Below, one piece after another: positions 1 to 18,239 of a DNA stretch of 64,000 bases; the stretch's first letter is position 1; every line of letters begins with the position of its first letter. This DNA is from Crocinitomicaceae bacterium (GTDB lineage: Bacteria > Bacteroidota > Bacteroidia > Flavobacteriales_D > Crocinitomicaceae). The DNA is taken from assembly GCA_045107045.1 (NCBI GenBank), contig JBGCFR010000025.1:1640-65639 (forward strand), written 5' to 3'. The translations under genes were made by a program, and so were the position numbers. The notes under the pieces are model-generated. The model made no database searches. It saw nothing but the letters and a program-made list of their open reading frames with translations, and had not been told where the DNA came from.

Positions 1-450
1 GGAAAGCGTCAATTTTCGCTTACTTATGTAAGTGACCTTGTTGATTCTATAGTTAAAGCTTTGTCAAAAAATATTAAAAATAACACCTATAATGTGGTTA
101 GCAACCCAAAAACCAATATTAATGAAGTTATTGAATATGCGACTGAAATCCTTAATTCTAAAAATGAGCTGATTAATGCAAAACCAGAGTTTTTGAAGAA
201 AAACAAAGTCAGCCAATGGTTTGATATGCCTTTTTGGTTAGATGGAGATTTCTTTACTCATAGTAATCATAAATATATTAACGATTTTGAATTAGAACCA
301 ACAGAATTGAAAAAAAGCATTGAAGAAACTATAAAGTACTATGAAAATTTAGGATGGAAAGAACCCAAATATGGAATGACAGAAAAAAGGAGAATGGAAC
401 TTCTTGAAAAAATTAATAAAAAAACTACAGCTAACAACGTGTATAATTAA
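1..450 (+). CDS. NAD-dependent epimerase/dehydratase-like protein, C-terminal part (5' truncated by window edge)
   Basis: Frame is open from base 1 (GKRQFSLTYVSDLVDSIVKAL...TYNVVS...DMPFWL), resembling the C-terminal half of extended SDR proteins; the stop codon lies inside the attC-like element. Confidence 0.65.
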   Translation, partial: GKRQFSLTYVSDLVDSIVKALSKNIKNNTYNVVSNPKTNINEVIEYATEILNSKNELINAKPEFLKKNKVSQWFDMPFWLDGDFFTHSNHKYINDFELEPTELKKSIEETIKYYENLGWKEPKYGMTEKRRMELLEKINKKTTANNVYN

Positions 451-557
451 TTACTACGGAATTCCTTCGCAGGAATTCACTCGAATTAATTAACTTAGCT
501 CAACGTCGGAAAATCCTAACTGATTTTCCGTAACTAACCATACAAAAACCGTTATAA
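429..557 (+). repeat. attC-like recombination site / imperfect inverted repeat
   Basis: AGCTAAC (429-435) and GTTATAA (551-557) core-like boxes. A 13-bp arm (441-453/531-543) has three A/C mismatches that become G:T pairs on the bottom strand. Two internal hairpins (459-478, 507-530). Confidence 0.6.
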
Positions 558-1043
558 TGCAATAGCCCAACCACTTCTCGAAGAAAAATAACAGGTGAAA
601 TAGCGGTGAAAAAACCACAGTAACCGAAAGTTCAAGGCGGACAGCACCCAAGGCAAACCACAGTATTTTAAAATGCAAAATGTTAGCGGCATTAACTCGG
701 CGGACTGCACCCACAGTTTGGAAAACCAATTCGGTGCGGGGCGACTGACAATTTTATTTGAATTATGTGTGGAAAGTTGCGGTTTAAGTTGGAGCTGACC
801 ATCAGGAAAAAATGTTTGAATTCAAGTAAAAACATTAGTAAGACCGGCTAGTTCCGCCAGCGATAGCCAGGAAATCCGTCGGCCGCACTTTTGTTTTGAG
901 CAGGATGAAATCATTTGTTTGTGCGGGTCTTGAGTTTTTGGTTCGTTTTGTGTCAAGACAAAATGAACGAAAGATGAACGGGAAATTAGAGTAGAATAGG
1001 TGTAAAATTTTAAAAGTTAGTATGTTGGAAAATAAAAAGCATG

Positions 1044-1110
1044 TTACAACAAGCAAAATTTACAGCGAAGCTGTTCGGCATAAATGCCTATTTTTACCCA
1101 AACGTTAGCT
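1044..1110 (+). repeat. second, shorter attC-like site
   Basis: TTACAAC (1044-1050) ... GTTAGCT (1104-1110), with internal hairpins acagc/gctgt (1062-1074) and ggcat/atgcc (1077-1088); outer arm pairing is weak. Confidence 0.4.
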
Positions 1111-1382
1111 ACAATCGACTCTCTTACTTTTAAAGAAAAACCAATCTTGAAATCATTTTCAATACCGCAGTGGTAATATTTGAAAAGACTTACTTAGTTA
1201 GGAGGATGATTTTTACCAAGCCAATTTTTTGATTCTAAATATTGTGGAAATTGTCTCCCAAAATCCAATAGAATATTGATTTTCACTAGATGTACTTTAC
1301 TTTTTGCTAATAGCGAATTAAGAAACATTATTTATTAATGCAACCTTTCAAAAAAAGAATGCATCAATTGAAAAAATAGAAT

Positions 1383-2939
1383 ATGAAAAACTGCGTATTA
1401 TTTGTACTTGTTCTTTTAATTCACTCGAGTGCTTTGTATGCTCAAGATGGAGTACTAGATAATTCATTTGATTCTGATGGAATTGTAACAATGGACATTA
1501 GTAATTCTAATGATGTAATGAAATCTATAATTACACAGCCTGATGGGAAAATAATCGTTGCAGGTTATACATCTGACATGGTTATAGATAATTTCTGCGT
1601 GGCTCGATTTCATAGCAATGGAACAATAGATAATAGTTTTGGAGTAAATGGTATTGTCGTAACCGCATTTCCATCTACTAGCCTAGCTTCTGAGGTTGCC
1701 TTGCAGAATGATGGTAAAATTATAGCTGTCGGTCATACATGGGAAGGTTCAGTAAATAATTTTGCTTTGGCGAGATACAATTCTGATGGGAGCTTGGATG
1801 CTTCATTTGGTAATTCAGGAATAATTAGCACCTCTTTATTTGGAAATAATGCTTTTGCAAAAACATTAAAAGTTCAAAATGATGGTAAAATTATTGTTGG
1901 AGGTATGGTTTTTGATTCACCGCCAGACGGTTCTTCTTTAGCAATTGTAAGGTATAATCAAGATGGAACTTTAGATAATACATTTGGAGGTGGAGGCATT
2001 TCAACAACAGATGTAACACCGGGCTTCGGTTTAACGGCTCTTGATATTCTAAATGATCTAGCTATTCAACAAAACGGAAAAGTAGTTGTTTGTGGAATTT
2101 CAGGACCAGATGGGGTGATATTACGGTATAATTCTGATGGGAATTTAGATCTAAGTTTCGGACTAAACGGAATAAAAACCCACAATTTTTCTACAGGCGG
2201 AATGTCTGTTTTTAATGGGATTGACCTGCAACAAGATGGCAAAATAATTACTGTAGGATTTTCTTCAGGCATGAATGGCATTAGTGATCTACTGGTTATT
2301 AGGTCTAATATAAATGGAGATTTAGATAACACTTTTGGCAACATGGGGATAATATTTACCCCATTGAGTGCAGAGGCAGATGGAGCGGAGGATGTTCTTG
2401 TGCAACAAGACGGTAAAATTTTAGTGGGAGGTAATGTTTCAAATTCCATTTATAAGTTTGCATTAACTAGATACGATACAGATGGAAACCCAGATTTAAC
2501 ATTTGGTACTAATGGACTTGTGCAAACTGAGGTTAACTCAGAGTCTAGCTATCTTAATGCAATTACTATTCAAACTGATGGCAAAATATTAGCAACTGGT
2601 ACAACGGGTTCAACAAATTCTGATATAACAATTATTAGATACTCTTCGTCAATATTGTCTTCATCAAATCCTATACCTTTATTCGAAAATGCTTCAATTT
2701 ATCCTAATCCTACGTCAGATAATGTAAGTATCACTTTTATGTCAAAACAAGAAGGCGTAATATCTATAAAACTATTTGACATGAGTGGCCGATTATTACT
2801 TGAAAAAAACTACCCTTCATTAATACCTGGAATAAAAAATACAAAAACACTTCAATTAGAAGTTTACTCAGAAGGAATCTATTTTATTGGTATTAGCACA
2901 TCCAATACAAGTCGAATATTTAAGGTTGTGAAAAAATAA
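1383..2939 (+). CDS. T9SS-secreted delta-60 repeat beta-propeller protein
   Basis: Signal peptide; about 7 repeats of DGxLDxSFGxxG / QxDGKIIVxG; C-terminal IYPNPTSD...GIYFIGI...KVVKK sorting domain. Confidence 0.9.
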   Translation: MKNCVLFVLVLLIHSSALYAQDGVLDNSFDSDGIVTMDISNSNDVMKSIITQPDGKIIVAGYTSDMVIDNFCVARFHSNGTIDNSFGVNGIVVTAFPSTSLASEVALQNDGKIIAVGHTWEGSVNNFALARYNSDGSLDASFGNSGIISTSLFGNNAFAKTLKVQNDGKIIVGGMVFDSPPDGSSLAIVRYNQDGTLDNTFGGGGISTTDVTPGFGLTALDILNDLAIQQNGKVVVCGISGPDGVILRYNSDGNLDLSFGLNGIKTHNFSTGGMSVFNGIDLQQDGKIITVGFSSGMNGISDLLVIRSNINGDLDNTFGNMGIIFTPLSAEADGAEDVLVQQDGKILVGGNVSNSIYKFALTRYDTDGNPDLTFGTNGLVQTEVNSESSYLNAITIQTDGKILATGTTGSTNSDITIIRYSSSILSSSNPIPLFENASIYPNPTSDNVSITFMSKQEGVISIKLFDMSGRLLLEKNYPSLIPGIKNTKTLQLEVYSEGIYFIGISTSNTSRIFKVVKK

Positions 2940-3179
2940 CTATTTGTAGAAAACATTGAGTTCAATTAACACTATCTAATTATTCTAGTGACTGCAATGG
3001 AATCCTTCAGTCGAAACCAATAATTATACGAATTTTGGTTCGTTTATTACTTAAGTACTTATTTTCAAAGTTAGTCATTACGTACTCGTACTGCAGAGTT
3101 TAATTAAGATAAAATGAATAAAGGCTCGAAGGGAGGAGGTGCGTCTGTAATGTGTTCAAGATTCTGAAAATAAAGCAGT

Positions 3180-3297
3180 AGCTAGCAACAGTTAAATTCA
3201 ATTTGCATTTACAATCAAGCGTTTTAGTTCTCTGAAAGTGACACTAAAACATGGTTTAGAATAATAAAATAGCTAGTTAAGCTAAACAATGCTATGG
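3180..3297 (+). repeat. degenerate attC-like site
   Basis: AGCTAGC (3180-3186) ... GCTATGG (3291-3297) around a perfect 8-bp hairpin gttttagt/actaaaac (3221-3250); similar length to the 429-557 element. Confidence 0.3.
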
Positions 3298-3484
3298 CGG
3301 TTATCTAATTACAGTCTGCGCGAATGCAAACAGAAATTTAGTCAGGCGTAATCACTATAAATACGATAGAATAGTTTCAGGAATTACCCTTAAAAATTCA
3401 GACATTGATTATTAGTAACGGGTAGGAGCAACCACAGACCCCTCATGGCAAGGCTGAAAGATAAAAATTTATCAAGCTACCAAA

Positions 3485-3784
3485 ACTTGCGCGAAAGCGC
3501 TCAGCTTATCTCCTAATTATTTAAGCGATCTTTTAAAAAAAGAAACAGGAAAAACAACGCTTGAACATATTCACCTTTTCTTAATTAAGAAAGCTAAAAA
3601 TAATCTGCTAAATTCATCAGCAACTATTAGTGAAATAGCCTACTCCCTCGGATTTGAATATCCGCAAAGGTTTAGTAATTTGTTTAAATCAAAAACAGGT
3701 ATGAGTCCAATGCAATACAGGCATTTGTTAAGGCATCCAATTAATAACACATGGCAAAGAACAAAACAAAGGAAACCGAAGTGA
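3485..3784 (+). pseudogene. AraC-family regulator remnant (HTH domain only, no start codon)
   Basis: Manual translation: CAKALSLSPNYLSDLLKKETGKTTLEHIHLFLIKKAKNNLLNSSATISEIAYSLGFEYPQRFSNLFKSKTGMSPMQYR; in-frame TGA at 3455-3457 with no ATG before the domain. Confidence 0.85.
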
Positions 3785-3933
3785 ATGTAATTGATTTATT
3801 GATTCATATGTTGGCAATGAGCAAAAGAGAATCGATAGTTATGAGCATAGTTAATTGTTGCGGGTGATTAATTAATTGTGCTAAACATAACATCTATTGT
3901 TCTCAATATGATGAGATGTTTTCAACTATTAGT

Positions 3934-3941
3934 TATATTTG
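3934..3941 (+). promoter_or_regulatory. Bacteroidota -7 promoter element TATATTTG
   Basis: Exact TAnnTTTG 15 nt upstream of ATG 3957. Confidence 0.55.
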
Positions 3942-3956
3942 GTAAAAGCAAATTGT

Positions 3957-4292
3957 ATGAATAGATTAATTGTGTTCTTACTAGTGGTAACAGTTGTAAA
4001 TTGCTCTAAATCGATAGCTCAAAACCCAAACATGCCCAATTATGATGGAGATTGGGAATCTAAAATTCATCCATTATCTTTTAGTTGTAAAATTGGAATT
4101 TCGTCTAACAATGAATTTAAGGTTTCACTCAGTAATTACCAGAAAGTATTTGATGAGAAAATTACTTCAACCACTTCAGATAAAGTTTCTATAAGTTTTT
4201 TAGAGGTTTATGATTTTACAGGAAGGTTTAACAAAGACAAAAGCAAGCTTGAGGAGTTTCTTAAAATTAGAAATGATGAGAAGAAAGTATAG
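3957..4292 (+). CDS. secreted hypothetical protein, possibly truncated
   Basis: Signal-peptide-like N-terminus MNRLIVFLLVVTVV; ATG 3957 preferred to the TTG at 3939, which lies inside the promoter. Confidence 0.5.
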   Translation: MNRLIVFLLVVTVVNCSKSIAQNPNMPNYDGDWESKIHPLSFSCKIGISSNNEFKVSLSNYQKVFDEKITSTTSDKVSISFLEVYDFTGRFNKDKSKLEEFLKIRNDEKKV

Positions 4293-4327
4293 ATTACCTT
4301 AAGTAGAATTTGAAAAAACAAAGAACA

Positions 4328-4648
4328 ATGATAGCAAAAACACCAAAGCCACCATATTATGCAGTAATTTTTAGTTCTATCAATACAGAACATATAGCTG
4401 ATTATTCTGATATGGCTGATAAAATGGTTGAATTGGCCAGTCGTCAAGAAGGTTTTCTTGGTGTCGAAAGTGCAAGAAATGAACTTGGCATTACGGTGTC
4501 ATATTGGAAAGATTTGGATTCAATCAAAAAATGGCGCAACAATGCTGAACATTCCGTAGCAAGAGAAAGAGGACGAAATGAATGGTATAAGGCTTTCAAA
4601 ACAAGAATTTCGCTGGTGGAAAGAGATTATGGATTTGAAGCAGAATAA
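4328..4648 (+). CDS. antibiotic biosynthesis monooxygenase (ABM) family protein
   Basis: PPYYAVIFSS...GFLGVESAR...GITVSYWKDLDSIKKWR...EH..AR..GR..WY; start is ATG 4328 or TTG 4310. Confidence 0.9.
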   Translation: MIAKTPKPPYYAVIFSSINTEHIADYSDMADKMVELASRQEGFLGVESARNELGITVSYWKDLDSIKKWRNNAEHSVARERGRNEWYKAFKTRISLVERDYGFEAE

Positions 4649-4728
4649 CAGAGACTAAATGTTCAGTTTTTACATTTATTAATTATTCCTTACATTGGTA
4701 ATATCATTGTTAACCATAAACTGACAAT

Positions 4729-6211
4729 ATGAAAAAAGTGCTATTAACGGCCTTAATTTTGTTAACCATTTTAGAGGCTAAATCGCAAACTATAATAAAT
4801 CCTGAATGGGTTAAAACCGAGTTTGGATCAGTTAATAATTTAGCTGAAGCATGGGGGTGTTGATGTAGATGCTAGGGGTAATGTGTATTGGGCATTTAAC
4901 TCAAATAATCTTAACCAGGGGTTAGACTTAACCTGTAAAAAGTATAACACTATTGGTGTTGAACAATGGAGTACGCCGTTCTTTTACGGTGGGTCTGGTA
5001 CACAACAATCGTACATTGTAAATGTAGGTGAAACTGCGCTCTATATTGGCGGTAGAGAATGCACAGGCTTGACAAATACCTGTGATATGCTGCTATTAAA
5101 AATTAATAAAAACAACGGCACTTTGATTTGGAACGAAACCATGAATTTTAGTGGAAATGGCTATGATGAATTGGATGGTTTAGCTTTAAAAGATGATGGC
5201 ATCTATTGTGGCGGTTGGGCACATGAACTGGAAAGCGGCACTTTTAATGCCGATATGGGATTTTGGAAATTAGATTATAGTGGCAATACTATATGGACAA
5301 ATTATTTAGGTCAAACTGGCTCAGCAGAGCACCAAGATGGTCATTTTGTAGTTGATGATAATTACATTTTTGCGGCAGGATTATGGAATGGTAGTGGCGC
5401 CTTTAATTTATATAATGGACATTCGATAGTTGGTAGATTCGATAAGTCAAATGGCGCAATGGTAGACACTACTTTATTTGGGCCTCAGTCCAATAATTTT
5501 CTTGATATTGAAAATGCACTTGGCATGACAAGTAGTGGTGACTTTTTATACATTACGGGATATACAACCCCTATTGCAGCCAACGATTGGCAGATATTTG
5601 TAGCGAAATATGATAAAAATTTAAACCAAATTTGGTACACCGATTGGGGTGGTACTGACGCCGAATCAGCTAGGGGTATAACAGTTGTAGATGATGTTAT
5701 TTATGTGGCAGGTCTATCATCTTCTCCTTCAATTATTTCGGGTGGACTTAGGGACGCGGTTTTACTAAGGCTAGATACCTCAGGTAATGTATTGTCTTAC
5801 GAAACTTGGGGAGATGCTAACGAAAATTCATTCCGTGATATTTATGTGGATAACAACGCAATTTATTTGTCAGGAACTTCTGAAATAGATACGACAACTG
5901 ATCAGAAATCAGCATTTTTATTAAAAGTTGCCAATGGAATCGGAGGTACAGGTAAAATTGCCAATGACAATAAAATAGGTTTCAATGTTAGTCCTAATCC
6001 TTCAAATGGAGAAGTTCAAATTCTATTTAATAATAATCAACATGAAGAAGGATTAGTAAATGTCACAGATGTGAATGGTAGGGTAATCATGAGTAAAATA
6101 TTTAGTGATAACGTAGAAAATATTGATTTTAGGATAACCAATAGCGGCATTTATTTTATTACTGTTGAATTTGAAAAATACCGAATCTCGAAAAAGGTGA
6201 TTATTAATTAG
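4729..6211 (+). pseudogene. T9SS-secreted beta-propeller protein interrupted by a +1 frameshift in a G5 run
   Basis: ATG 4729 gives signal peptide MKKVLLTALILLTILEAKSQ...EAWGC-stop; deleting one G at 4853-4857 gives AWGVDVDARGNVYWAF, in frame with ORF 4883-6211, which ends in a T9SS CTD (VSPNPSNG...GIYFITV). Confidence 0.8.
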
Positions 6212-6316
6212 TCGTAAAATAAATTCGTTAGTATTTGGATTTATCATGCAACAAATAGGATTTCCATTTGCTGTTCGAAATTGGATTTAAATGTGCTCAG
6301 TTATTTTTAAATTCAA

Positions 6317-7318
6317 ATGATGAAAAAAACTAGCACAATCATTCCTGGATTTATTATTTCGATTTGCATTGGTTTAATTTCTTTTAATACTACTACAATT
6401 GGTGAAATTGGAAAATGGGAGATGCCTAAAGTTCAATTTCCAATTGATAATCCATTTTCAATCGAAAGTATAGAATTAGGTAATGCTTTATTTGGTGAAC
6501 GTTTATTTTCGCAAGACACTTCTATAAGCTGCCAAGGCTGTCACATGACACATATGGCACTTACAGATCAATTAAAAGTTGGTAAAGGTGTTTTTGATAG
6601 AGAAGTAACTAGAAACACACCAACACTTAATAATATTGGTCTGCACCCTTATTTGATGCGAGATGGTAAATTCCAAACATTGGAAGAGCAAGTTTTGGCC
6701 CCATTGGAGGACCACCGTGAGTTTAATATAGAAGTTAATGAATTAATGGACCGATTGAAGTCGGTTTCTTATTTAGATGCAATGAGTCAAAAGGCCTATG
6801 GTTCAGATTTAACTATTGAGATTATTCAAAAAGCAATTGCTAACTTTCAACGCGTTTTGGTATCTAAAGACACTCCCTTTGATGCCTACATGAACGGGGA
6901 TGGAACAGCTATTTCGGTTAGTGCAAAAAACGGTTATCAGCTTTTTAAAAGTGATAGACTTAACTGTATAAAATGCCACAGTGGTTTCGATTTTACCAAC
7001 TATTCGTTTCAAAACAATGGCACCTACGAAATCTATAATGACAAAGGAAGGGCAATTATCACGAATAATAAAGAGGATATAGGAAAATTTAAGGTGCCAA
7101 CCCTAAGAAACCTAAAGCTCACTTTTCCATATATGCACAATGGTTCATTTCAATCATTAGAAGATGTTATAAGTCATTATAAGAATGGGGGAGCGAATTC
7201 TAAAAACAAGTCACCACTAATTCGTGGATTTGAATTAACGGCTACCGAACAAAAAGACCTGATTGAATTTCTAAATTCGCTTACAGAGTATAGGTTCCTA
7301 CAAATAGATGATAATTAG
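6317..7318 (+). CDS. di-heme cytochrome c peroxidase / MauG-family protein
   Basis: Two CxxCH motifs (CQGCH, CIKCH), RNTPTLNN, GKFKVPTLRNL..TFPYMHNGS. Confidence 0.92.
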   Translation: MMKKTSTIIPGFIISICIGLISFNTTTIGEIGKWEMPKVQFPIDNPFSIESIELGNALFGERLFSQDTSISCQGCHMTHMALTDQLKVGKGVFDREVTRNTPTLNNIGLHPYLMRDGKFQTLEEQVLAPLEDHREFNIEVNELMDRLKSVSYLDAMSQKAYGSDLTIEIIQKAIANFQRVLVSKDTPFDAYMNGDGTAISVSAKNGYQLFKSDRLNCIKCHSGFDFTNYSFQNNGTYEIYNDKGRAIITNNKEDIGKFKVPTLRNLKLTFPYMHNGSFQSLEDVISHYKNGGANSKNKSPLIRGFELTATEQKDLIEFLNSLTEYRFLQIDDN

Positions 7319-7403
7319 ATTGAAATATGCGCTTTGCTAATTGCGAGTAACTGAATTTTGTTTAACAAATTTTGTTTTTAATATAAATAGTAGTATAATT
7401 GCA

Positions 7404-7419
7404 TACCGAACGGTCGGTA
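7404..7419. promoter_or_regulatory. putative TetR operator (near-palindrome taccgaacggtcggta)
   Basis: GC-rich near-palindrome in AT-rich DNA, 13 nt upstream of an operon ending in a TetR gene. Confidence 0.6.
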
Positions 7420-7432
7420 CTTAATCTACATT

Positions 7433-7873
7433 ATGAAAAAAAAATCGTTATTAATGCTGTTGTTACTTGCATTATCAATTTCCAATTTATCCGTTTCTCT
7501 TCAATATAAAGGGAAGTTGGACGTAAATATTAACCATATAAAAAATAAAAAGGGGCATATAGTAGTTGCATTATTTAAAAATGCAAAGGGCTTTCCTGAA
7601 GATACAGATCAGGCCTTTAGGATAAAAAAAATTCGAGCGTCAGAAATACGACATCAAATCAGTTTTTACAATGTAGAACCAAATAATTACGCCCTTGCAG
7701 TTTTTCATGACGAAAATAGTAATGGAAAGTTAGATGTAAATTTCTTTGGAATTCCCACCGAAGGTATGGCAGTTTCAAATAATATCGACGGAAGTTGGTC
7801 AGCACCAAGTTTTGCAGAAGCCAAATTTACTTTTACAAAAAATCATTCGCTTATAATAAATATAATCAATTAA
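7433..7873 (+). CDS. DUF2141 family protein
   Basis: GxIVVALF..AKGFP...YALAVFHDENSNGKLDVNFFGIPTEGMAVSNN...APSFAEAKF. Confidence 0.9.
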   Translation: MKKKSLLMLLLLALSISNLSVSLQYKGKLDVNINHIKNKKGHIVVALFKNAKGFPEDTDQAFRIKKIRASEIRHQISFYNVEPNNYALAVFHDENSNGKLDVNFFGIPTEGMAVSNNIDGSWSAPSFAEAKFTFTKNHSLIINIIN

Positions 7874-7945
7874 AACAGGTTCACCAATTATCAATAGCAC
7901 CCTTAAAATTTTAACTTTTTTAAAATAACGTTTTAAAACTTTGAC

Positions 7946-8446
7946 ATGACACATTCTAAAATACTGTATACTTTATTAATTATTTCATCAATAAATCTCA
8001 CCTTGATGGTTCCAGGTGGCCCTGTTGAAACACGCGATTTTTCACATATTAATGCTTCAATATTGAGTGCTTTTAACATTTTTCTTACCGCATTAGGAAT
8101 GGTGAGTTTATTCTTACCCTATTTCATATATAAACAACAAAATTGGGCCATACGAATAGCATTTTTATGCGGAATTAGTTATTTAACTGTATTCGGAATT
8201 GATTTAATAAAGTTATTTCCAAAATCTCCAACACCAATGCCAGTTTCCTTGCTAATCATGGAAGTGTTAGGAATTATTTTATCTATTCCGCTGATATATT
8301 ATTCTATTAAAAAAATGAAAGATGCTACAATTAGTCAAAAAGCCATTAGACTTTCAAAAATGAGCTATCTTCTTATAGGAGTAGTTATTATAATTGCATT
8401 ATTTATTATTATTTTTGCAACAAATGCTGCAATGACAAGTAATTAA
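7946..8446 (+). CDS. integral membrane hypothetical protein
   Basis: About 5 hydrophobic segments; stop overlaps the TetR start (TAATG). Confidence 0.75.
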   Translation: MTHSKILYTLLIISSINLTLMVPGGPVETRDFSHINASILSAFNIFLTALGMVSLFLPYFIYKQQNWAIRIAFLCGISYLTVFGIDLIKLFPKSPTPMPVSLLIMEVLGIILSIPLIYYSIKKMKDATISQKAIRLSKMSYLLIGVVIIIALFIIIFATNAAMTSN

Positions 8447-8988
8447 TGGAGACAAAAGAAAAGATATTGTTAACTTCTTATAAAGTGTTTATTAATAATG
8501 GGTATCACAATACATCCATGCAGCAATTGGTAAATGAAACGAAATTGTCTAAAGGTGCGTTTTATCATCACTTTCGCAATAAAGATGAATTATATCGGCA
8601 AGTTATAAATGAGTATTTTTTGTCTTTTTACAAAGCAATTGATTGGGATCAATATAATCAAGTTAAACTAACGTATAAACAGATTGAATTTGAAATTCAA
8701 AAATTCTATTTAAATTTTGTACCTCAAATCTTATCAATTACTCAAAATGGAATGTCAGGATATTATATAATGTATTTTGAAGCTTATAATAAACTACCTG
8801 AATTCAAAAAAGAAGTTCAGAAATTTTATAGTAATCTTGAAGCACTCTTGATCAAGGCAAATAGTAATGAAGGTGAGTCGTTAAAAAAAGCAACACAAAT
8901 TATTTCTAAATATGAAGGAATATTGTTCCTTTTGGCAATTGATCCGAGTTTGAAAATAGAAAAATTAGTTGCTCAAATATCTGAATAA
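8446..8988 (+). CDS. TetR/AcrR family transcriptional regulator
   Basis: TKEKIL...F..NGYHNTSMQQLV....LSKGAFYHHFRNKDELY helix-turn-helix. Confidence 0.95.
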   Translation: METKEKILLTSYKVFINNGYHNTSMQQLVNETKLSKGAFYHHFRNKDELYRQVINEYFLSFYKAIDWDQYNQVKLTYKQIEFEIQKFYLNFVPQILSITQNGMSGYYIMYFEAYNKLPEFKKEVQKFYSNLEALLIKANSNEGESLKKATQIISKYEGILFLLAIDPSLKIEKLVAQISE

Positions 8989-9248
8989 AATCTATTTTGT
9001 TCTTACTGGTGAATTATAACATAAGTTGAAATGCTTGATGATAAAATTCCCAAATTTTGTACTTTTAATTGGAATTTAAAATACAAGTGCAAAGGTTTAA
9101 TATATTTATACTCTAAATGACTGATGGAAGAATTAAATCGTGGGAATTACTTCCAAACTCACTAAAAGTATGCTGACATTTTATTAAACTTGCTGAAATT
9201 TATTACGCCATATAAATAATATGGTTTTTCAATTAAATTACTAAAAAT

Positions 9249-9776
9249 ATGAAAATAAAATTCTTGATAGCATTTTTTTTAGGTTTATTACTAAGTTGTT
9301 CAACAACGAAATCATCAATAATTATTGCCGATACTTATGATGAGGAAAAAGACATGACAACGCTGATAATAGCGCCGCTTGGGAACATTAATATTCCAGG
9401 TAAATGGACTAAAACGAAATATAATGAAGTGAGTCGGCAACATTTTTTTAAAAATAATAATGAAACTACAATTGCCATAGCTAAAAACTTAAAGGAGAAG
9501 TATCCATTTTATTCCAAGTCCGCTTCGAACATAATGTTTGCAAAAATTTTTTTTGAATGGGAGAAAGCACACTATGAGCAACAAGGGTTCACGGTAGGGG
9601 AATATAGTAAAGGAAGTAATTATATAATTTGGACCGCTAAAAAAGATGAAGTAAACACTATGTTTTTATATGGAGCAAAAGGTAATTTTGCTTATAATTA
9701 TTCTGTATTTGCTAACAACTGGAGTGAAGAGAAGAGGGTGCAATTTTTGAAAGATCTCTTAGAAAAAAATGAATAA
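9249..9776 (+). CDS. hypothetical lipoprotein
   Basis: Lipobox LLLS-C after a hydrophobic signal; no recognised domain. Confidence 0.75.
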   Translation: MKIKFLIAFFLGLLLSCSTTKSSIIIADTYDEEKDMTTLIIAPLGNINIPGKWTKTKYNEVSRQHFFKNNNETTIAIAKNLKEKYPFYSKSASNIMFAKIFFEWEKAHYEQQGFTVGEYSKGSNYIIWTAKKDEVNTMFLYGAKGNFAYNYSVFANNWSEEKRVQFLKDLLEKNE

Positions 9777-9848
9777 TCTTTTTGGGTTAGTTGATGGAGT
9801 TACTTAATATCGGACAGTTTCATAGTGTCAATACAACACTTGCTAAAA

Positions 9849-10688
9849 ATGAAAATATATAATATACCTAATGATTTAGATAATAAAGTTTTGGCAACTT
9901 TTAAAGTTTTTGATCATAGAACTTCAGAAGAATGTGTGAAGCAAATGGTAGTGTTAAAACAGAATGTATTTAGTTTTTTAATTGAGGGTAGTAAGGAAGT
10001 GTTTTTTGACAATAGATCTACTTCCATAGAAAGTTCAGACTTTTTATTAATGAAAGCAGGTAACTGTTTGATGTCCGAAAAACAATCAGCAGATACGGGT
10101 GACTATAGAAGTGTTCTGTTCTTTTTTTCTAAGGAATCAATTTTTAGATTTATACAAAAATACAGTTTAAAAGCCTCTAGAAAAGATTGTTTGAAGTCTG
10201 TTTATTCATTTCCGCATGATAATTTTATAAAGACCTTTGTTGAAGGTGTTATTAATATAATTCAACTTAATTCAAAAATTCAAGAGGAATTATTGGGTGT
10301 TAAGTTTGAAGAGATAATGTTATATTTAAAAGAGACCCAAGGTGTTGATTTTATATTTGCTTTAACAGATAGTGTTAATAAACGATCTCAACATTTTATT
10401 GATGTTATTGAAGCAAATAAATTAAATAAATTAACCATAAAGGAGCTATCATTTTTGTCAAATATGAGCGTTTCAACTTTCAAGAGAGAATTCGAAAAAC
10501 GATTTAATTGCTCTCCCAGTCAATGGTTTCATGATAAAAGGCTAGAGCATTCTGCTTTTTTATTAAAAAGTAAGTCTAAACGGGCATCTGAGATTTTTGA
10601 AGAAATAGGTTATCAAAATTTGTCTAATTTCATTCATGCATTTAAAGCAAAATATGGCGTAACACCCAAACAGTATCAATTAAATTGA
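9849..10688 (+). CDS. AraC family transcriptional regulator
   Basis: C-terminal LTIKELSFLSNMSVSTFKREF...EIGYQNLSNFIHAFKAKYGVTPKQY; start is ATG 9849 or GTG 9825. Confidence 0.93.
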   Translation: MKIYNIPNDLDNKVLATFKVFDHRTSEECVKQMVVLKQNVFSFLIEGSKEVFFDNRSTSIESSDFLLMKAGNCLMSEKQSADTGDYRSVLFFFSKESIFRFIQKYSLKASRKDCLKSVYSFPHDNFIKTFVEGVINIIQLNSKIQEELLGVKFEEIMLYLKETQGVDFIFALTDSVNKRSQHFIDVIEANKLNKLTIKELSFLSNMSVSTFKREFEKRFNCSPSQWFHDKRLEHSAFLLKSKSKRASEIFEEIGYQNLSNFIHAFKAKYGVTPKQYQLN

Positions 10689-10744
10689 ACTTTCAGCACA
10701 AGTTTTTGGACTAAAATGAGCACAATACTTTTTTGTGTAAGTCA

Positions 10745-10752
10745 TAGATTTG
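10745..10752 (+). promoter_or_regulatory. -7 promoter element TAGATTTG, preceded by ttgRact direct repeats at 21-bp spacing (10685, 10706)
   Basis: Exact TAnnTTTG; 21-bp-spaced repeats are typical of AraC-family binding sites. Confidence 0.5.
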
Positions 10753-10772
10753 TAGTCTAAATTATAAATGAA

Positions 10773-11339
10773 ATGAAAAAAATCAATCTTATTTTTTTGA
10801 TACAAGTGATAGTTTTTAATTCAGTGTATGCTCAAAATACATTTACATTATCAAGTAATGAATTAGGCGGGCAAGCAACCATCAATGAGGAATTTAATGG
10901 TTTTGGCTGCATGGGAGACAATTTATCACCTCAGCTATCATGGCAAAATGCACCTGAAGGAACAAACAGCTTTGCAATAACAATGTATGATCCAGATGCA
11001 CCTACTGGAAGTGGATGGTGGCATTGGGTAGTATTTGATATTCCTTTAGGAACGAATGAGATTGTTAGTGGTGCTGGTAGTACAAACCTTAATTTAATGC
11101 CAAGAGGAGTTATTCAAAGTGTTTCCGATTATGGAACTAATGGTTATGGTGGACCATGCCCTCCAGAAGGTCATGGATTACATCAATATATCATTACAAT
11201 TCACGCTTTAAGTATAGCTAAGCTTGGGTTAAACCCCAATACGAATCCAGCTGTAGTAGGTTACAATATATTAAGTAATACTTTGTCAAAGGCGAGTATA
11301 GTAATTTACTACGAAAGAGTTAACAAAGCCGAGGAATGA
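10773..11339 (+). CDS. YbhB/YbcL family Raf kinase inhibitor-like (PEBP) protein, secreted
   Basis: SPQLSW..APEGT.SFAITMYDPDAPTGSGWWHW...YGGPCPP.GHG.HQY. Confidence 0.95.
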   Translation: MKKINLIFLIQVIVFNSVYAQNTFTLSSNELGGQATINEEFNGFGCMGDNLSPQLSWQNAPEGTNSFAITMYDPDAPTGSGWWHWVVFDIPLGTNEIVSGAGSTNLNLMPRGVIQSVSDYGTNGYGGPCPPEGHGLHQYIITIHALSIAKLGLNPNTNPAVVGYNILSNTLSKASIVIYYERVNKAEE

Positions 11340-11340
11340 A

Positions 11341-11760
11341 ATGAAGTCTGAAACCAAAGATGATTTAGATATACTTAAAATAGATAAAGTGGTCAACTTA
11401 TTTTTTGATGCTTTTACAAACAAGAGTAAGAAACCCAATCTTGAATCACTGCATCAGCTTTGTTTGCAGAAAGCAATTATTATTAACAATACAAATGGTT
11501 TGTGTGAAACTTATGATTTAAATGAGTTTATTATTTCTAGAAAAGAAATCCTTTCCAATGGGACATTAAATAATTTCGTAGAACATGAGCAAAGTAAACA
11601 AACAGAAGTAGTTGGGCATATTGCTCATAGGATTTCTAATTACAAGAAAGTTTGGGTTTCAGAAGGACATCAATATACTGGTATAGGAGTTAAAATGTTT
11701 CAGTTTGCAAGACAAAACAATGACTGGAAAATATGTGCAATCATTTGGGATGATCATTGA
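11341..11760 (+). CDS. NTF2/SnoaL-like (DUF4440-type) protein
   Basis: G..MFQFARQNNDWKICAIIWDD C-terminal strand motif typical of NTF2-fold proteins. Confidence 0.75.
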   Translation: MKSETKDDLDILKIDKVVNLFFDAFTNKSKKPNLESLHQLCLQKAIIINNTNGLCETYDLNEFIISRKEILSNGTLNNFVEHEQSKQTEVVGHIAHRISNYKKVWVSEGHQYTGIGVKMFQFARQNNDWKICAIIWDDH

Positions 11761-11920
11761 TAAAAACCAAACTTAATACATGAAAAAACTACTTAGGAAG
11801 AAGAATAATCATTTTCCCAAACGAATTCATAAACTTCGTGAAGAATTGATTTAGCTAAAGCAGAAGAGCAAATTTGAAAATAGTTGTATTTTGCAAACAG
11901 TGAATTAAAAATGATAAAAT

Positions 11921-12448
11921 TTGAATAACAAACTAAACACATTCGAGACCGAAAGACTGCTTCTTAAACCAACTTCTAAGACAGATGACAAGTTTATTTT
12001 TGAATTATTTAATAGCCCTAAATGGATAGAATTTATTGGAGATAGAAATATCAAATCAGTTAAAGACGCAGAAAAATATATAATTGAAAAAATTATACCT
12101 CAGAAAGAAAACTCTGGATTAGGAACTTATACAGTGATAACTAAGAATGAAAATAAGAAAATAGGAACTTGTGGGTTGTATAATAGAGAAGGGGTAGAAG
12201 GTTTAGATTTAGGTTTTGCGTTTTTGCCAGAGTTTGAAAGAAATGGCTTTGCTTTTGAAGCATCCGAGAAGATAGTGGATGTTGCTTTCAATCATCTGAA
12301 TTTAAATGAAATTAAAGCTATCACAGTCAAAGAAAATACTTCGTCGCAAAAATTATTGGAAAAATTAAAATTCGAACTAATGAATATTATATTACTTCCA
12401 AATAATAGCGAAGAACTATTACTATATTTAAAAACTAGACAAATATGA
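11921..12448 (+). CDS. GNAT acetyltransferase, RimJ/RimL-like
   Basis: ETERLLLKP...IGTCGL..R......DLGFAFLPEF...GFAFEA...N.SSQKLLEKL. Confidence 0.92.
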   Translation: MNNKLNTFETERLLLKPTSKTDDKFIFELFNSPKWIEFIGDRNIKSVKDAEKYIIEKIIPQKENSGLGTYTVITKNENKKIGTCGLYNREGVEGLDLGFAFLPEFERNGFAFEASEKIVDVAFNHLNLNEIKAITVKENTSSQKLLEKLKFELMNIILLPNNSEELLLYLKTRQI

Positions 12449-13266
12449 ATCTTAGAATAATAATTTTCACAGTATTATTTCTTTTTTTTAGTAGCCAAAT
12501 ATTTGCGCAAAACTCACAAACTAAAAGTCCTATAGCTATAGGCGAAAGAGTTGAAATTAAATCTACTATTTTAAAAGAGAATAGAGTGTTGAACATCTAT
12601 TTACCAGCTGGGTACTCAAATGATTCTCTTAACGGTTATCCAGTCATCTATTTATTAGATGGCTCAATGAATGAAGACTTTCTGCATATATCAGGATTGG
12701 TCCAATTTGGTTCATTTTCATGGATAAAAATGATTCCACAAAGTATTGTTGTTGGTATATCTAATATTGATAGAAAAAAAGATTTTACGTTCCCGTCAAC
12801 AATAAAAAGAGACAATAAGAATTTTCCGACAACAGGAAGTTCAAGTTCATTTATTAGCTTTATTGAACAAGAATTACAACCATTTATTGACAGTAACTAT
12901 AACACAAGTTCAGTTAAAACAATAATTGGTCAATCTTTAGGAGGTCTTTTGGCCACTGAAATTTTATTAACTAAGCCTCACTTATTTGATAATTTTATAA
13001 TCATTAGTCCAAGTTTATGGTGGGATAAGGAATCATTATTGAAAAAAGAACCATCAAAATTTCAATCCAAAAAATCTATTTATATCGGTGTTGGTAAAGA
13101 GGGGAAGGTAATGGAGCGCACAGCAAAAGAACTCTATGATAAACTAAAAAAAAGTAAGCAAGAGAATGACGATTTGTATTTTGAATTCTTTGAAAAACAG
13201 GATCATGGAGATGTTCTGCATTTAGCAGTTTATAATGCGTTTGATAAAATTTTTAGAGCTGAGTGA
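12445..13266 (+). CDS. secreted alpha/beta hydrolase esterase (IroE-like)
   Basis: YPVIYLLDG, GQSLGG nucleophile elbow, SPSLWWD, HG catalytic His. Confidence 0.92.
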   Translation: MNLRIIIFTVLFLFFSSQIFAQNSQTKSPIAIGERVEIKSTILKENRVLNIYLPAGYSNDSLNGYPVIYLLDGSMNEDFLHISGLVQFGSFSWIKMIPQSIVVGISNIDRKKDFTFPSTIKRDNKNFPTTGSSSSFISFIEQELQPFIDSNYNTSSVKTIIGQSLGGLLATEILLTKPHLFDNFIIISPSLWWDKESLLKKEPSKFQSKKSIYIGVGKEGKVMERTAKELYDKLKKSKQENDDLYFEFFEKQDHGDVLHLAVYNAFDKIFRAE

Positions 13267-13465
13267 TTAGTAATTAAAGAATTATTTTAGCTCAAAAACG
13301 ATACGCTTTTTATATATCATGTTTGATATATATGATCTTTATTTGAAATGTTACACCTGGGGTTTTAGATTAGTTAGTGTGTATTGGCAACTTTTTTTCG
13401 TAAGTTTAGATAATTAATTTCAGTGTATACACACTGTCATTTTAAAAACTTAAAAATAAAGCCTT

Positions 13466-13690
13466 ATGAAAAATAATAGAACGATTAGTATAATTGCCAT
13501 TTCTGTTAACTTGATTTCTATTTTATATAAATTAATGCAAGGTGCTCGTGCAGGCTGGGAAACCATGCTTCCGATAGTAGCAACTGGTGCAGTATTAACA
13601 ATAGTAGCAGTATTAATACAAAGAAATTCAATTGCATGGACTGCAGTTATAACTGCAATACTGTCAATCCTATTTTTTTTCTTAGCATAA
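13466..13690 (+). CDS. small membrane hypothetical protein
   Basis: 74-aa ORF with three hydrophobic segments and an A-rich leader. Confidence 0.6.
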   Translation: MKNNRTISIIAISVNLISILYKLMQGARAGWETMLPIVATGAVLTIVAVLIQRNSIAWTAVITAILSILFFFLA

Positions 13691-13827
13691 ATCAGTTAAA
13701 AAAGACTATTAAATGATTTTGGTTAATTACGAATTTCAAAAGATAGCCAAACCATCTTAATTCTAATAGTGGACTAGAGTAAATTAGCCTTAACTCTGAA
13801 GAAATAAAATCAAAAATAAAATCAACT

Positions 13828-14487
13828 ATGAACAATCAAGACGATCAAATTGACAGAAGAAAATTCATTAAAAAGTCATCAGTTGCCACTTTGGGGGTAG
13901 GCAGTCTATTGATTTTACCACAAGCAGGTTCAATGGTTGACAAAACAAGTATTGAAGAAATGAATATTGTTGGACCAAAAGAAGGGTTTGCACCTCAAAT
14001 TGGCACTTTGGTATCTATGATGAATTGGATGAGGTCTACTATTCTTTACCCGGTAAAGGGTATGAGTGTTGATGATTTAGATTACTTGGTTGATGAAAAA
14101 GCCAATTCTATTGGTGCTATGTTATGGCACTTGGCTGCTACGGAGCGATTCTATCAAATCCATACCTTTGAGGGAAAGGATTGGGGAGATTGGGAGGAAG
14201 AGGATCAATTGGAGTGGGGTACAGCCTCTGGTTTAGGAGATGATGCCCGAGAAAAAATAAATGGAAATAACTTAGAATTTTACCTAGAAAAATTGAAAAA
14301 TGTCAGGGAAAATACACTTAAAGAATTTGCAAAACGAGATGATAAGTGGTTAATGGCGGTTGATCAGAAATGGTTTTGGGGTCCGACCAATAACTATTGT
14401 AAATGGTTTCATGTCTGTGAACATGAGTCGAATCATAATGGTCAATTTAAATTTATTAAAAGTAGGTTACCGTCTAACAAGAATTAA
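13828..14487 (+). CDS. DinB/YfiT-like protein with twin-arginine signal peptide
   Basis: DRRKFIK Tat motif; NSIGAMLWHLAATE and HVCEHESNHNGQ metal-ligand motifs. Confidence 0.88.
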   Translation: MNNQDDQIDRRKFIKKSSVATLGVGSLLILPQAGSMVDKTSIEEMNIVGPKEGFAPQIGTLVSMMNWMRSTILYPVKGMSVDDLDYLVDEKANSIGAMLWHLAATERFYQIHTFEGKDWGDWEEEDQLEWGTASGLGDDAREKINGNNLEFYLEKLKNVRENTLKEFAKRDDKWLMAVDQKWFWGPTNNYCKWFHVCEHESNHNGQFKFIKSRLPSNKN

Positions 14488-14513
14488 TTCTAGTAAACTT
14501 TCAAACAAATAGA

Positions 14514-15203
14514 ATGAAGCAAAAATTACTCCTTTTGCACGGCGCTTTAGGAACTAAAGACCAATTCAAAGTATTAGAGACAAAACTCTCACCTGAATTT
14601 AATGTATTAAGTTTTGACTTTGAAGGTCACGGTGGTCAACAATCTAATAATGATTTTTCAATGTCCTTGTTCGTTGGGAATGTTGTAGATTTTTTGAAAA
14701 AGAATAAAATTGACAGTGTCCATGTATTTGGATATAGCATGGGTGGTTATGTAGCTCTGTGTTTAGCAAGTAAGCACCCCCATTTAGTGAAACGAATTAT
14801 AACATTGGGAACTAAATTCGATTGGACGAGAGCGACAGCTGAAAAAGAAGTTAAAATGTTAAATCCAAATTCGATAGAAGAGAAAGTTCCACGTTTTGCT
14901 AGTCATCTTGAAACCATTCATGGGAAAAATTGGAAAAAGATGGTTGTAAAAACTGCAAATATGATGCTTGGGCTAGGTGAGGAAGCTTACTTATCAAAGA
15001 ATGAACTTGGTGGTGTTTCGCATGAAATTTTGATTGGTGTCGGAAGTAATGATTCTATGGTGAGTATTGAAGAGTCTGAGGCATGTACAGATGCTTTACC
15101 AAATGGTAACTTAGAAATTATTGAAGAATTTGAACATTCTATAGAAAAAGTAGATAGTTTGGTTCTGAGTACACTAATTTCTAATTTTATAAAAGTAAAT
15201 TAA
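14514..15203 (+). CDS. alpha/beta hydrolase
   Basis: LLLLHGALG, GHGG, GYSMGG. Confidence 0.92.
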   Translation: MKQKLLLLHGALGTKDQFKVLETKLSPEFNVLSFDFEGHGGQQSNNDFSMSLFVGNVVDFLKKNKIDSVHVFGYSMGGYVALCLASKHPHLVKRIITLGTKFDWTRATAEKEVKMLNPNSIEEKVPRFASHLETIHGKNWKKMVVKTANMMLGLGEEAYLSKNELGGVSHEILIGVGSNDSMVSIEESEACTDALPNGNLEIIEEFEHSIEKVDSLVLSTLISNFIKVN

Positions 15204-15257
15204 GAAATTACTTTATTTCGAATGATTTAAACTACAAAACAAATATATCAGCACTGT

Positions 15258-15800
15258 ATGAAAAAGAATACTGTTTTTATTGCAAAGAGTATGGACGGCT
15301 TTATTGCCGATAGGAATGGGGGAATGGATTGGTTGCAAATTACACCCAATCCGAGAGGCAATGACATGGGGTATCAATTTTTTTTAGATGAAATGGATGC
15401 CATTGTAATGGGAAGAAAATCCTACGAAACCATTTTAGGCTTTGACATTGACTGGCCTTATAACATCCCAGTATTTGTTTTGAGTAGCACTTTAACTGAA
15501 GTGCCTTCAGAACTCCAAGGTAAAGTACATTTTGCCAATGGGCAATTAAAAGAAATACTAGCTGGGATACATGAGCATGGTTTTCACAATTTATATATTG
15601 ATGGAGGTATAACCATTCAAAATTTTCTGAAAGAGGATTTAATTAATGAGTTAATCATCACTACTATCCCCATATTATTGGGTGGTGGTATTCCACTATT
15701 TGGAGATTTATCTGTTCCCATCAGATTTCAATGTACAGGCACAAAAATATTTTTAGATGCAGTAGTACAAAATCATTTTGTAAAGTTGAAAGTGGAGTAG
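15258..15800 (+). CDS. dihydrofolate reductase / RibD C-terminal family protein
   Basis: FIAKSMDGFIA, IVMGRKSYE, LYIDGG, IPILLGGGIPLF. Confidence 0.93.
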   Translation: MKKNTVFIAKSMDGFIADRNGGMDWLQITPNPRGNDMGYQFFLDEMDAIVMGRKSYETILGFDIDWPYNIPVFVLSSTLTEVPSELQGKVHFANGQLKEILAGIHEHGFHNLYIDGGITIQNFLKEDLINELIITTIPILLGGGIPLFGDLSVPIRFQCTGTKIFLDAVVQNHFVKLKVE

Positions 15801-15828
15801 ATTGTTAGTGTAAAATATGATTTAAGAG

Positions 15829-16383
15829 ATGAAATTTGAAGAAATAAAAACGGATAGATTGATTTTGAGAAAACTATCTCAAGAAGTGTATGATCAAATA
15901 TTTGGTTATTATTCAAAGGATGAGGTGATGTCCTATTTGGGTTTAAGTTCAGAGAAAGAATATTTAGAAGAAAAAGTAAAATATGAAAGTGGATTAACCA
16001 CTCACAATAGAAAAATACTTTACTTTCAATTATTAGATAAGACTACAAGTACAATAATTGGTTGGTGTGGATACCATACTTGGTATGTTGATCATTTTAG
16101 AGCTGAAATAGGTTATGGCTTGTTTGATGAAAGTTTGAAAGGAAAAGGTTTGATGTCAGAAGCAATGTTACCAATTATTAAGTTTGGATTTGATCAAATG
16201 AGTTTAAATAGAATTGAAGCTTTTATAGCGCCTTATAATCAAGCTTCGTTGAAGTTAGTTAGTAAATTCAACTTTAAAGAGGAAGGCCTACTACGAGAAC
16301 ACTATTATAAAACTGAAAATGCGGAAGCTTCAGCAGTATATTCTTTATTAAAAAGTGAGTTTAAATTAAAAGATCATATCTAA
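15829..16383 (+). CDS. GNAT acetyltransferase, RimJ/RimL-like
   Basis: TDRLILRK, RAEIGYGL....KGKGLMSEAM, NQASLKLVSKFNFKEEGLLREH. Confidence 0.92.
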   Translation: MKFEEIKTDRLILRKLSQEVYDQIFGYYSKDEVMSYLGLSSEKEYLEEKVKYESGLTTHNRKILYFQLLDKTTSTIIGWCGYHTWYVDHFRAEIGYGLFDESLKGKGLMSEAMLPIIKFGFDQMSLNRIEAFIAPYNQASLKLVSKFNFKEEGLLREHYYKTENAEASAVYSLLKSEFKLKDHI

Positions 16384-16506
16384 CGGATGTCAATAATTGG
16401 GGTGGTGATCTTTTTAGTGAATAACTTCAAACAATCATTGTGGAAAAGTATTTGAACTTAAAGAACAACTGATTAAAAAAAGTTGGATTTTTGTTTCAGT
16501 TGAATT

Positions 16507-17640: not shown

Positions 17641-18239
17641 AAGGAACAAATCTTTCGGAAAAAGGTCAAAGAGATTTAGCATTGGTTGAAAAAGCACTAA
17701 ATGGTAGTCAGCCAGCCTATGCAGAATTAATGGAAAAATACCGTGAATCAATTTATTTTATGATGCTCAAAATGGTGTCTAAAGATGAAGATGCTGAGGA
17801 TTTAACCATTGAAGCATTTGGAAAAGCGTTTAACCGCTTGCATCAATACTCGCCAAGTTTTGCTTTTAGTACATGGTTGTTTAAAATCGCCTCAAACAAC
17901 GCCATTGATTTTATTAGAAAGAAGAGAATTCAAGTAACGTCAATGGACACCGGCTATACAAATAGTGATGGTGAAAGTATTAGTATTGATGTAGAGAGCA
18001 CTGAAAAAGATCCTGAGGAAGTGACCATCCATTTGGAGAAGGTAAAGCACATGCGGAATATTGTACAAACCTTAAAGCCACGATATAGAGATTTAATCGA
18101 AAAAAGATACTTTCAAGAATTGTCTTACGAGGAAATTGCAGTGGATATGAAATTGCCACTAGGAACAGTAAAAGCTCAGCTGTTTAGAGCACGGGCATTT
18201 CTAGCAGATATCATGGAGAAAACTAAAGATTCTATCTAA
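17634..18239 (+). CDS. ECF RNA polymerase sigma-70 factor
   Basis: DAEDLTIEAF..AF, FSTWLFKIASNNAIDFIRKK, LSYEEIA...LPLGTVKAQLFRAR. Confidence 0.95.
   Translation: MVKGTNLSEKGQRDLALVEKALNGSQPAYAELMEKYRESIYFMMLKMVSKDEDAEDLTIEAFGKAFNRLHQYSPSFAFSTWLFKIASNNAIDFIRKKRIQVTSMDTGYTNSDGESISIDVESTEKDPEEVTIHLEKVKHMRNIVQTLKPRYRDLIEKRYFQELSYEEIAVDMKLPLGTVKAQLFRARAFLADIMEKTKDSI

Follow-up and report, generated by a model that had tools for sequence, protein, structure and literature searches.

An integron-like gene-capture array next to an attC-free run of co-oriented genes in a Crocinitomicaceae genome

Recombinase-associated acquired interbacterial defence (rAID-1) clusters have been described in Bacteroidales (Ross et al. 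2019, bioRxiv 10.1101/471110), where they are defined by a 5' XerD-like recombinase at least 44% identical to BF9343_RS08045, and homologues more than 50% identical to that recombinase are confined to this order (10.1101/471110). As for integrons, IntegronFinder 2.0 reports a single complete integron for the Bacteroidetes, that of Salinibacter ruber. Here we describe a stretch of 64,000 nucleotides (hereafter, the window) from the draft genome of a Crocinitomicaceae bacterium (G000, 3.55 Mb, 33.5% G+C; contig C18:1640-65639). The left 3.3 kb of the window is, to judge from its sequence, the end of a real gene-capture array with attC-like sites, and it is followed by a 13-kb tail of co-oriented genes that leads up to a conserved glycosyltransferase (GT) gene. 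Compared by description, rAID-1 appears to be the nearest described system. The features of the window are collected in Table 1.

An initial annotation, made from the letters of the window, had proposed that positions 1-16383 are a gene-capture array with attC-like sites at the left, no such site after ~3300 and no integrase. At the left end the array is genuine: three sites were recovered (427-553, 1038-1113 and ~3160-3354), none follows after 3354, and no recombinase occurs in the 64 kb, so that at least two attC are found here without a nearby integrase. Ahead of the epimerase gene at the left edge of the window lies a short attC (C18:1005-1063) whose R' flank, GTTAGCTGT, reads exactly as the reverse complement of ACAGCTAAC at 427-435, and the gene is a bona fide cassette open reading frame (ORF). 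Site #1, of which an 86%-identical copy lies at C40:30954-31064, was missed by the short-attC covariance model, and the cassette start that follows it, GTTATAATGC, also follows an attC on contig C5. The ORF-less cassette behind it has no match in Rfam, and copies 89-90% identical are present in a sister species (L024:4861-5369 among the listed copies), where the GT and sigma factor genes are only ~77% identical. This cassette may encode a structured RNA, or may have spread recently. The 3' half of site #2 is also found in other genera, and the DUF5122 cassette that starts there has ends complementary at 8 of 9 positions, with TAAC as the consensus at the remaining one. Site #3 is damaged in both R boxes, with TAAC changed to TAGC in R'' and GCGTTA to GCGT-A in R' (a loss of 1 nt); its minimum-energy fold includes the outer stems CTAAATT/AATTTAG and TTTGCATT/AATGCAAA. 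The idea that the 183-nt repeat forms one long hairpin was rejected (z = -0.45 and -0.24), as only the outer stems pair and there is no full-length palindrome. A fourth candidate, found by eye at 3865-3936, does not rise above noise in covariance model and HMM searches and does not hold up. An Rfam scan of positions 1-20000 gave nothing relevant.

The architecture of these sites becomes apparent in the comparison with other genomes. When 30 relatives were searched at the DNA level, the stretches 530-1115 and 3167-3349, both non-coding, turned out to be repeats that cluster at 0.5-2 kb spacing in G000 and its genus, and the 183-nt element, present in 18 copies, is conserved from ...TAACA to ...GGCGTT and unrelated outside. 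In G012, a complete genome from another genus, more than 30 small ORFs in one orientation come after the gene for a tyrosine recombinase of ~380 aa. Each of them has a ~160-nt repeat behind it that runs from RYYYAAC to GTTRRRY, and the bases 3' of the GTT of one repeat recur, reverse-complemented, before the AAC of the next. Complementary ends of this kind characterise integron cassettes, which join at G|TT. Conservation stops at the GTT in 28 and in 18 aligned copies, and the complementarity is exact over 8-9 nt in successive cassettes (e.g., GTTATGT/ACATAAC and GTTAGCAA/TTGCTAAC, besides the pair of the epimerase cassette). The 32 short sites of the genus (60-77 nt) have an AAC/GTT R box, spacers of 5 and 6 nt and an 8-bp L box, giving an attC-like layout of R'' ending in YAAC, a 5-nt spacer, the L box, a variable loop, the L partner, a 6-nt spacer and an R' box that begins with GTT. 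In 94.8% of cells the bases pair; shuffling lowers this to 77.7%, with none of 500 shuffles as high as the real sites, and sliding the partners lowers it to 41% or less. Changes on both sides occur in six of eight L-box pairs, and L-box covariation is seen too in the 28 long sites of G012. Thus, the attC box structure and the G|TT junction with complementary ends, by which classical integrons are recognised, are both found here, in bona fide cassettes 0.5-2.2 kb long.

The array continues upstream of base 1, since contig C68 joins the start of C18 through a 141-nt overlap. The covariance model R1 finds six short attCs on C68 (43-84 bits), the one that precedes the epimerase gene on C18 (41 bits) and one at the end of contig C16. 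Cassette ends match throughout the C68/C18 scaffold, in which one cassette has an inverted ORF. Among ten array proteins, Pfam names ParD, ParE, a type IX secretion system (T9SS) tail, Reg_prop, an Asp protease and an epimerase; none belongs to an immunity family by Pfam, although no immunity-specific profiles were searched, and many small lipoproteins of the array have no assignment. The ParD/ParE toxin-antitoxin pair is a two-gene cassette (L067:6751-7294, on C68), as in sedentary chromosomal integrons.

The far side of the array is probably marked by tgt. This gene adjoins the GT gene in eight related genomes, of which five are from the same genus (G003, G005, G006, G007 and G008) and three from other genera (G012, G014 and G017), and therefore everything between the two genes in G000 has been inserted. 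In G000, tgt (C16:23364-24491) and the GT gene are on separate contigs, and at least ~28 kb of the inserted block is assembled. On C16, tgt is followed in turn by ~230 nt of non-coding sequence, the final 24 codons of a recombinase gene, a 52-nt attI-like site ending in ...CCCGGTTGTTA, a cassette ORF and a short attC. Over 135 nt this stretch is 96% identical to the 3' end and downstream region of the intact recombinase gene on contig C64, and the identity ends exactly at GGTTGTTAGC. A further copy on C5, which heads another array, stops at the same point, so that the common sequence of the three platform copies (C16, C64 and C5) ends exactly at GGTTGTTA, after which each has a different first cassette. 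Such a common end point is the behaviour expected of an attI, and we refer to the site as a putative attI. From the synteny, C16 probably connects to C68/C18. We consider the array, its sites and its inserted state to be well supported. The initial annotation had named two findings that would speak against capture, a gene order conserved in related species, or a genome with neither a recombinase nor further repeats. The order is not conserved, and the genome has a recombinase, an attI-like site and many repeat copies.

The second array (C5:38100-50479, L030) lies after a TolC-like efflux gene, and the copy of the attI module that heads it retains only ~20 nt of the recombinase gene. Three 183-nt attCs are present, together with what appears to be a unit of a helix-turn-helix (HTH) protein, a DNA methyltransferase and a restriction enzyme; in G012 the equivalent TolC-side position is occupied by the intact recombinase. 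A perfect-looking hairpin of ~37 nt (ATTACCCGTAC...GTACGGGTAAT) is found 5' of the recombinase remnant on both C16 (24600-24650) and C5 (38230-38280) and is missing from the intact C64 copy, which suggests that the truncated platforms derive from each other.

The recombinase encoded intact on C64 is a Xer-like protein of ~390 aa with an N-terminal extension of ~105 aa, and its closest named relatives are from a Crocinitomicaceae metagenome-assembled genome and Putridiphycobacter roseus. It passes the cut-off of the NCBIfam model NF040815 ("XerA / integron integrase"; 233 bits versus 220) and aligns end to end with the archaeal XerA structures PDB 4A8E and 5HXY. A classical integron, that is, an IntI-type integrase with its attC array, would explain the attC architecture and the G|TT junctions, and the sites do behave like attC. 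Moreover, the IntI model TIGR02249 is the second-best NCBIfam match of the recombinase. This match, however, stays below the cut-off (212 bits versus 265) and falls into two stretches, with model positions 181-239 unmatched. Because 20 residues (query 289-309) stand where IntI has 63 (VchIntIA 181-244), the IntI-specific domain is absent, namely the additional domain around patch III that distinguishes IntI-type integrases. The best matches being to XerA, an IntI-type integrase is contradicted and a classical integron is exceedingly improbable here. A search upstream of base 1 for a XerC/IntI-like recombinase and an attI had been suggested at the outset, and the remnant and the attI-like site beside tgt agree with this expectation, the enzyme being of the Xer kind and not IntI.

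Orthologues of this recombinase (at least ~45% identity) are present in 20 of 200 sampled Flavobacteriales genomes, from nine families, often at contig ends. On five longer contigs, from five other families, the orthologue heads 10-14 co-oriented genes each, and R1 matches with E of at most 0.01 occur in four of the five runs. In most of about two dozen loci from several Flavobacteriales families, a cysteine-rich, zinc-ribbon-like gene of ~130 aa without a Pfam family lies divergently upstream of the recombinase (L016:1796-2209, on C64, and L080:1013-1402 are among them; 29-85% identity). Its product may assist the recombinase as an accessory factor.

Compared with rAID-1, the present system belongs to the same phylum and shares the presence of two or more co-directional genes 3' of the recombinase with repetitive intergenic sequence, as found in G012, G002, G001 and G008. 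It differs in the order, which here is Flavobacteriales (Crocinitomicaceae and eight other families), and in the cargo that could be recognised, with ParD/ParE, T9SS-secreted proteins, an epimerase and a protease here versus immunity genes in rAID-1. Whereas the G+C of rAID-1 is lower than that of the host, the G+C here is not clearly lower than that of the genome, and the sites could here be broken down into R and L boxes of the attC-like kind, together with G|TT junctions and an attI-like site. With integrons, it has in common the long, co-oriented arrays of mostly single genes, attC families that are homogeneous per host, toxin-antitoxin cassettes and a crossover at G|TT with RYYYAAC/GTTRRRY cores; arrays that are degraded or have no integrase are known in integrons as well. 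Unlike in integrons, the recombinase has no IntI domain and carries the N-terminal extension, and the putative attI is downstream of the recombinase gene and not upstream of a divergent one. A module system that likewise depends on Xer-type recombinases is that of the pdif modules of Acinetobacter plasmids, where discrete modules are moved between short sites, but a pdif site is bound by XerC/D as double-stranded DNA, and such sites come in inverted pairs and not as folded R/L-box sites in a directional array with attI. In archaeal integrons, attI is likewise immediately downstream of the integrase and the cassettes are mostly in one orientation; yet their integrases, and those of the "reverse-orientation" integrons of Spirochaetota, keep the additional domain that the recombinase here does not have (Ghaly et al. 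2022, bioRxiv 10.1101/2022.02.06.479319). No published description of this Flavobacteriales system was found in the literature searched, which was incomplete, and one may exist elsewhere.

The remainder of the region consists of ordinary-looking genes. Positions 1-16383 hold 20 plus-strand ORFs of at least 70 aa, with the GT and sigma factor genes, also on plus, coming next, and no credible gene on the minus strand, where the ORFs are short and confined to non-coding or overlapped sequence. This confirms the earlier description of about 20 functionally unrelated genes on one strand. Pfam also supports nearly all of their labels: epimerase, DUF5122 with a T9SS tail, ABM, a second T9SS-tail protein, CCP_MauG, DUF2141, TetR, AraC, PEBP, two GNATs, an esterase, DinB/MST, an alpha/beta-hydrolase and RibD_C; only the "NTF2" label (11341-11760) had no match in the Pfam scan. 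From 3939 onward the order is a hypothetical protein (hyp117), ABM, the frameshifted T9SS protein, CCP, DUF2141, a membrane protein with TetR, a lipoprotein, AraC, PEBP with a 139-aa ORF, GNAT with the esterase, a 74-aa membrane protein, DinB, the alpha/beta-hydrolase, RibD_C and GNAT. The pseudogene and the frameshift noted earlier at the 5' end are both real. The former is an AraC fragment whose DNA matches AraC genes elsewhere and which sits at the border of the array and the attC-free part, and the latter splits a T9SS gene of which G004 holds an intact homologue, 57% identical. The abrupt switch to core genes at 16507 was likewise correctly placed, as the order GT-sigma-ppx is syntenic throughout the genus and in three other genera.

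Table 1. Features of the window; positions are those of the window unless a contig is given.
Feature	Position	Strand	Evidence
NAD-dependent epimerase gene, 3' part	1..450	+	Pfam PF01370 on the full 337-aa ORF; start at C18:1076
attC-like site #1, atypical, ~127 nt	427..557	+	R'' ACAGCTAAC; R' GTTATAA at 551-557
ORF-less cassette, relatively GC-rich, repeated	554..1045	+	94%-identical copy at C5:50058-50479
attC-like site #2, short type	1038..1113	+	R' GTTAGCTAC; covariance model R1, 62.5 bits, E 1.7e-10
DUF5122 beta-propeller / T9SS-tail cassette	1107..3189	+	gene 1383-2939; starts GTTAGCTAC, ends GTAGCTAGC
attC-like site #3, long 183-nt type, degenerate	3160..3354	+	18-copy alignment A1; nhmmer E 5.8e-52
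AraC-family HTH fragment, pseudogene	~3458-3780	+	translation; C-terminal ~105 aa only, no start codon
Candidate decayed attC #4, weak (rejected)	3865..3936	+	by eye: GTGATTAAT versus expected GTGATTAAC; L boxes 6/9 complementary
attC-free run, 18 plus-strand ORFs	3939..16383	+	Pfam; four kinds of attC search negative
T9SS-tail gene split by frameshift	4729..6211	+	signal peptide 4729-4862 out of frame with body 4883-6211
Right junction of the inserted block	16384..16506	+	final ~65 nt (ATTGTGGAAAAGTATTT onward) are the conserved GT upstream region (versus G004)
Core genes: GT and ECF-type (extracytoplasmic function) sigma factor	16507..18239	+	conserved flank, 71-78% nucleotide identity across the genus

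It could be argued that the run is a normal, conserved part of the chromosome whose co-orientation reflects replication-strand bias or chance. With the GT and sigma factor genes the run counts 22 genes and ranks second by length among 849 same-strand runs in the genome; given that 11 of these, by the same crude ORF calling, reach at least 18 genes, it is unusual but not unique, and its codon usage is native. The synteny data nevertheless contradict this explanation. None of the 18 run genes is found upstream of the GT gene in G001, G005, G006, G007 or G008, tgt and GT are adjacent in the eight related genomes mentioned above, and bona fide attCs stand at the left end of the run. We therefore regard an ordinary chromosomal origin as highly unlikely.

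The origin of the tail (3350-16383) is the most debatable point. As cassettes span 0.5-2.2 kb, the 13-kb tail is not one cassette, and that it consists of fossil cassettes is a proposition which we find evenly poised. In its support, a gradient is visible along the array, in which the upstream attCs are intact, #3 has both R boxes altered, the #4 candidate is barely recognisable and nothing is recognised beyond. The erosion towards the right that had been proposed at the outset is thus seen among the recognisable sites, but not in the 13 kb that follow, where no remnant of any kind was detected. The comparison with the two sister species gives the same layout. In G001, two attCs (63 and 46 bits) are ~18.4 kb from the GT gene and none is nearer, while in G004 one decayed attC (R' GTT changed to GCT) lies 15.8 kb from it, again with none nearer. 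All three species thus have attC on the tgt side and then 13-18 kb of attC-free sequence beside GT, with mostly different genes that are almost uniformly in cassette orientation. The tails of G000 and G004 share a GNAT (66% identity), a hydrolase (53%) and an epimerase (44%), in different order, and those of G000 and G001 share none. In relatives, the homologues of the run genes match one gene at a time and in different surroundings. Fossil cassettes best account for the fact that one site has three tails of the same orientation but different content. As no sequence trace was found, this interpretation of the right 80% rests on position, orientation and the two sister species.

Several results weigh against it. 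With R1 run over the whole window and filters off, the best E in 3350-16383 exceeds 3 and the highest-scoring places lie on the minus strand; three nhmmer profiles, applied to the sub-region, reach a best E of 0.57, within coding sequence. The complementarity of cassette ends between neighbouring spacers is at background, and in a stop-anchored scan open to any type of site none of the 18 genes reaches 7 of 8 matches, compared with 3.9% genome-wide and 8 of 29 true cassettes. The genes are not separated by attC sites, and spacers of 17, 26, 28, 48 and 54 nt would be too short to hold one; three gene pairs overlap or abut, in an operon-like manner. The truncated AraC gene and the damaged R' at the boundary fit a deletion junction as well as a gradual decay. 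No attC was found alongside the homologues of the run genes in relatives or the DinB homologues in another family, and no homologue of a run gene was found in ~400 kb of fetched arrays and neighbouring loci. The proposed profile of G+C and codon usage gave no useful separation of run, cassettes and genome either: G+C is 0.319 in the run (p=0.027), 0.328 in the cassette ORFs (p=0.07) and 0.337 in the genome, with normal codon usage. Lastly, no overlap of contig ends links C16 with C68, so that the connection of the platform to the array is not assembled.

Two further candidate sites were discarded, and one scan proved uninformative. A "terminal attC" between the last GNAT and the GT gene has as its right half the conserved GT upstream region, present in G004; an apparent long-type left end after the ABM stop (~4643-4680) had no support in the profile search; and a first structural scanner for a palindromic pattern with an exact 7-nt L box matched in 1-20 kb at the background rate of ~0.3 per kb and missed degenerate true sites. 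The DinB/MST-like gene (13828-14487) was found in none of 74 sampled genomes of its own family and in nine of 27 from another Flavobacteriales family, at up to 72% identity, a patchy distribution that is consistent with transfer between families. In a genome of another family (L099, G046:C6:330800-346500), a recombinase-headed run includes ~10 kb with eight tightly packed genes in which no attC was detected, with attCs on both sides; attC-free multi-gene stretches therefore occur inside arrays as well.

Alternatively, the array could be real but end at ~3354, with 3458-16383 being an accessory island accreted at the tgt-GT hotspot in some other way, for instance through homologous recombination of imported DNA via the flanking core genes or through illegitimate insertion, and with the deletion that cut AraC having set the array beside it or truncated it there. 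Such an island would be in line with the complete lack of attC signatures, the short spacers and overlapping pairs, the coincidence of truncated AraC and damaged R' exactly at the junction, and the non-array contexts of the run-gene homologues. In addition, pairs of a regulator and its neighbour, such as the membrane protein and TetR, resemble ordinary chromosomal modules. It explains less readily why three species with different gene sets at one site have nearly all genes in cassette orientation and attCs only on the tgt side, as genes should be common to all three species if the island had been inherited, and a generic hotspot should not impose one orientation. We judge the island a serious alternative, though a somewhat improbable one.

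If the tail does consist of fossil cassettes, the following course of events can be proposed. Positions 1-16440 are the GT-proximal end of the large block inserted between tgt and GT, and this block would be an integron-like capture array in which a recombinase remnant and an attI-like site precede single-gene cassettes of almost uniform orientation, and on which the C64 recombinase presumably acts in trans. New cassettes would enter at attI, so that the window would hold the oldest part of the array. The genes in 3350-16383 would have been captured earlier, with their attC sites since deleted or mutated away, and the outcome would be a fixed, ordinary-looking run of co-oriented stand-alone genes. 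More generally, but only as a tentative proposal, Flavobacteriales may carry a widespread, IntI-independent integron, composed of the Xer-like recombinase, the divergent zinc-ribbon-like gene of ~130 aa, attI downstream and cassettes with R/L-box attCs joined at G|TT, whose arrays progressively lose attC and turn into co-oriented accessory runs beside core genes.

In surveys of integrons, the system is recognised by the IntI-specific domain, and hardly any have been reported from Bacteroidota, whereas a recombinase without that domain is accompanied here by sites of the attC type, G|TT junctions and an attI-like site. This combination is found in about one in ten of the sampled Flavobacteriales genomes. 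If this recombinase acts on these sites, recombination of folded attC would not need the IntI insertion, for which the zinc-ribbon-like neighbour or the N-terminal extension might substitute, and rAID-1 of gut Bacteroidales would belong, as a single branch, to a wider cassette system of the phylum. The tgt-GT locus, with its ancestral empty state and three independently filled states, offers a natural series for the decay of arrays into ordinary-looking runs. Should IntI-independent capture followed by such decay prove true, it would be a major, so far unrecognised route for single genes to enter and settle in Bacteroidota chromosomes.

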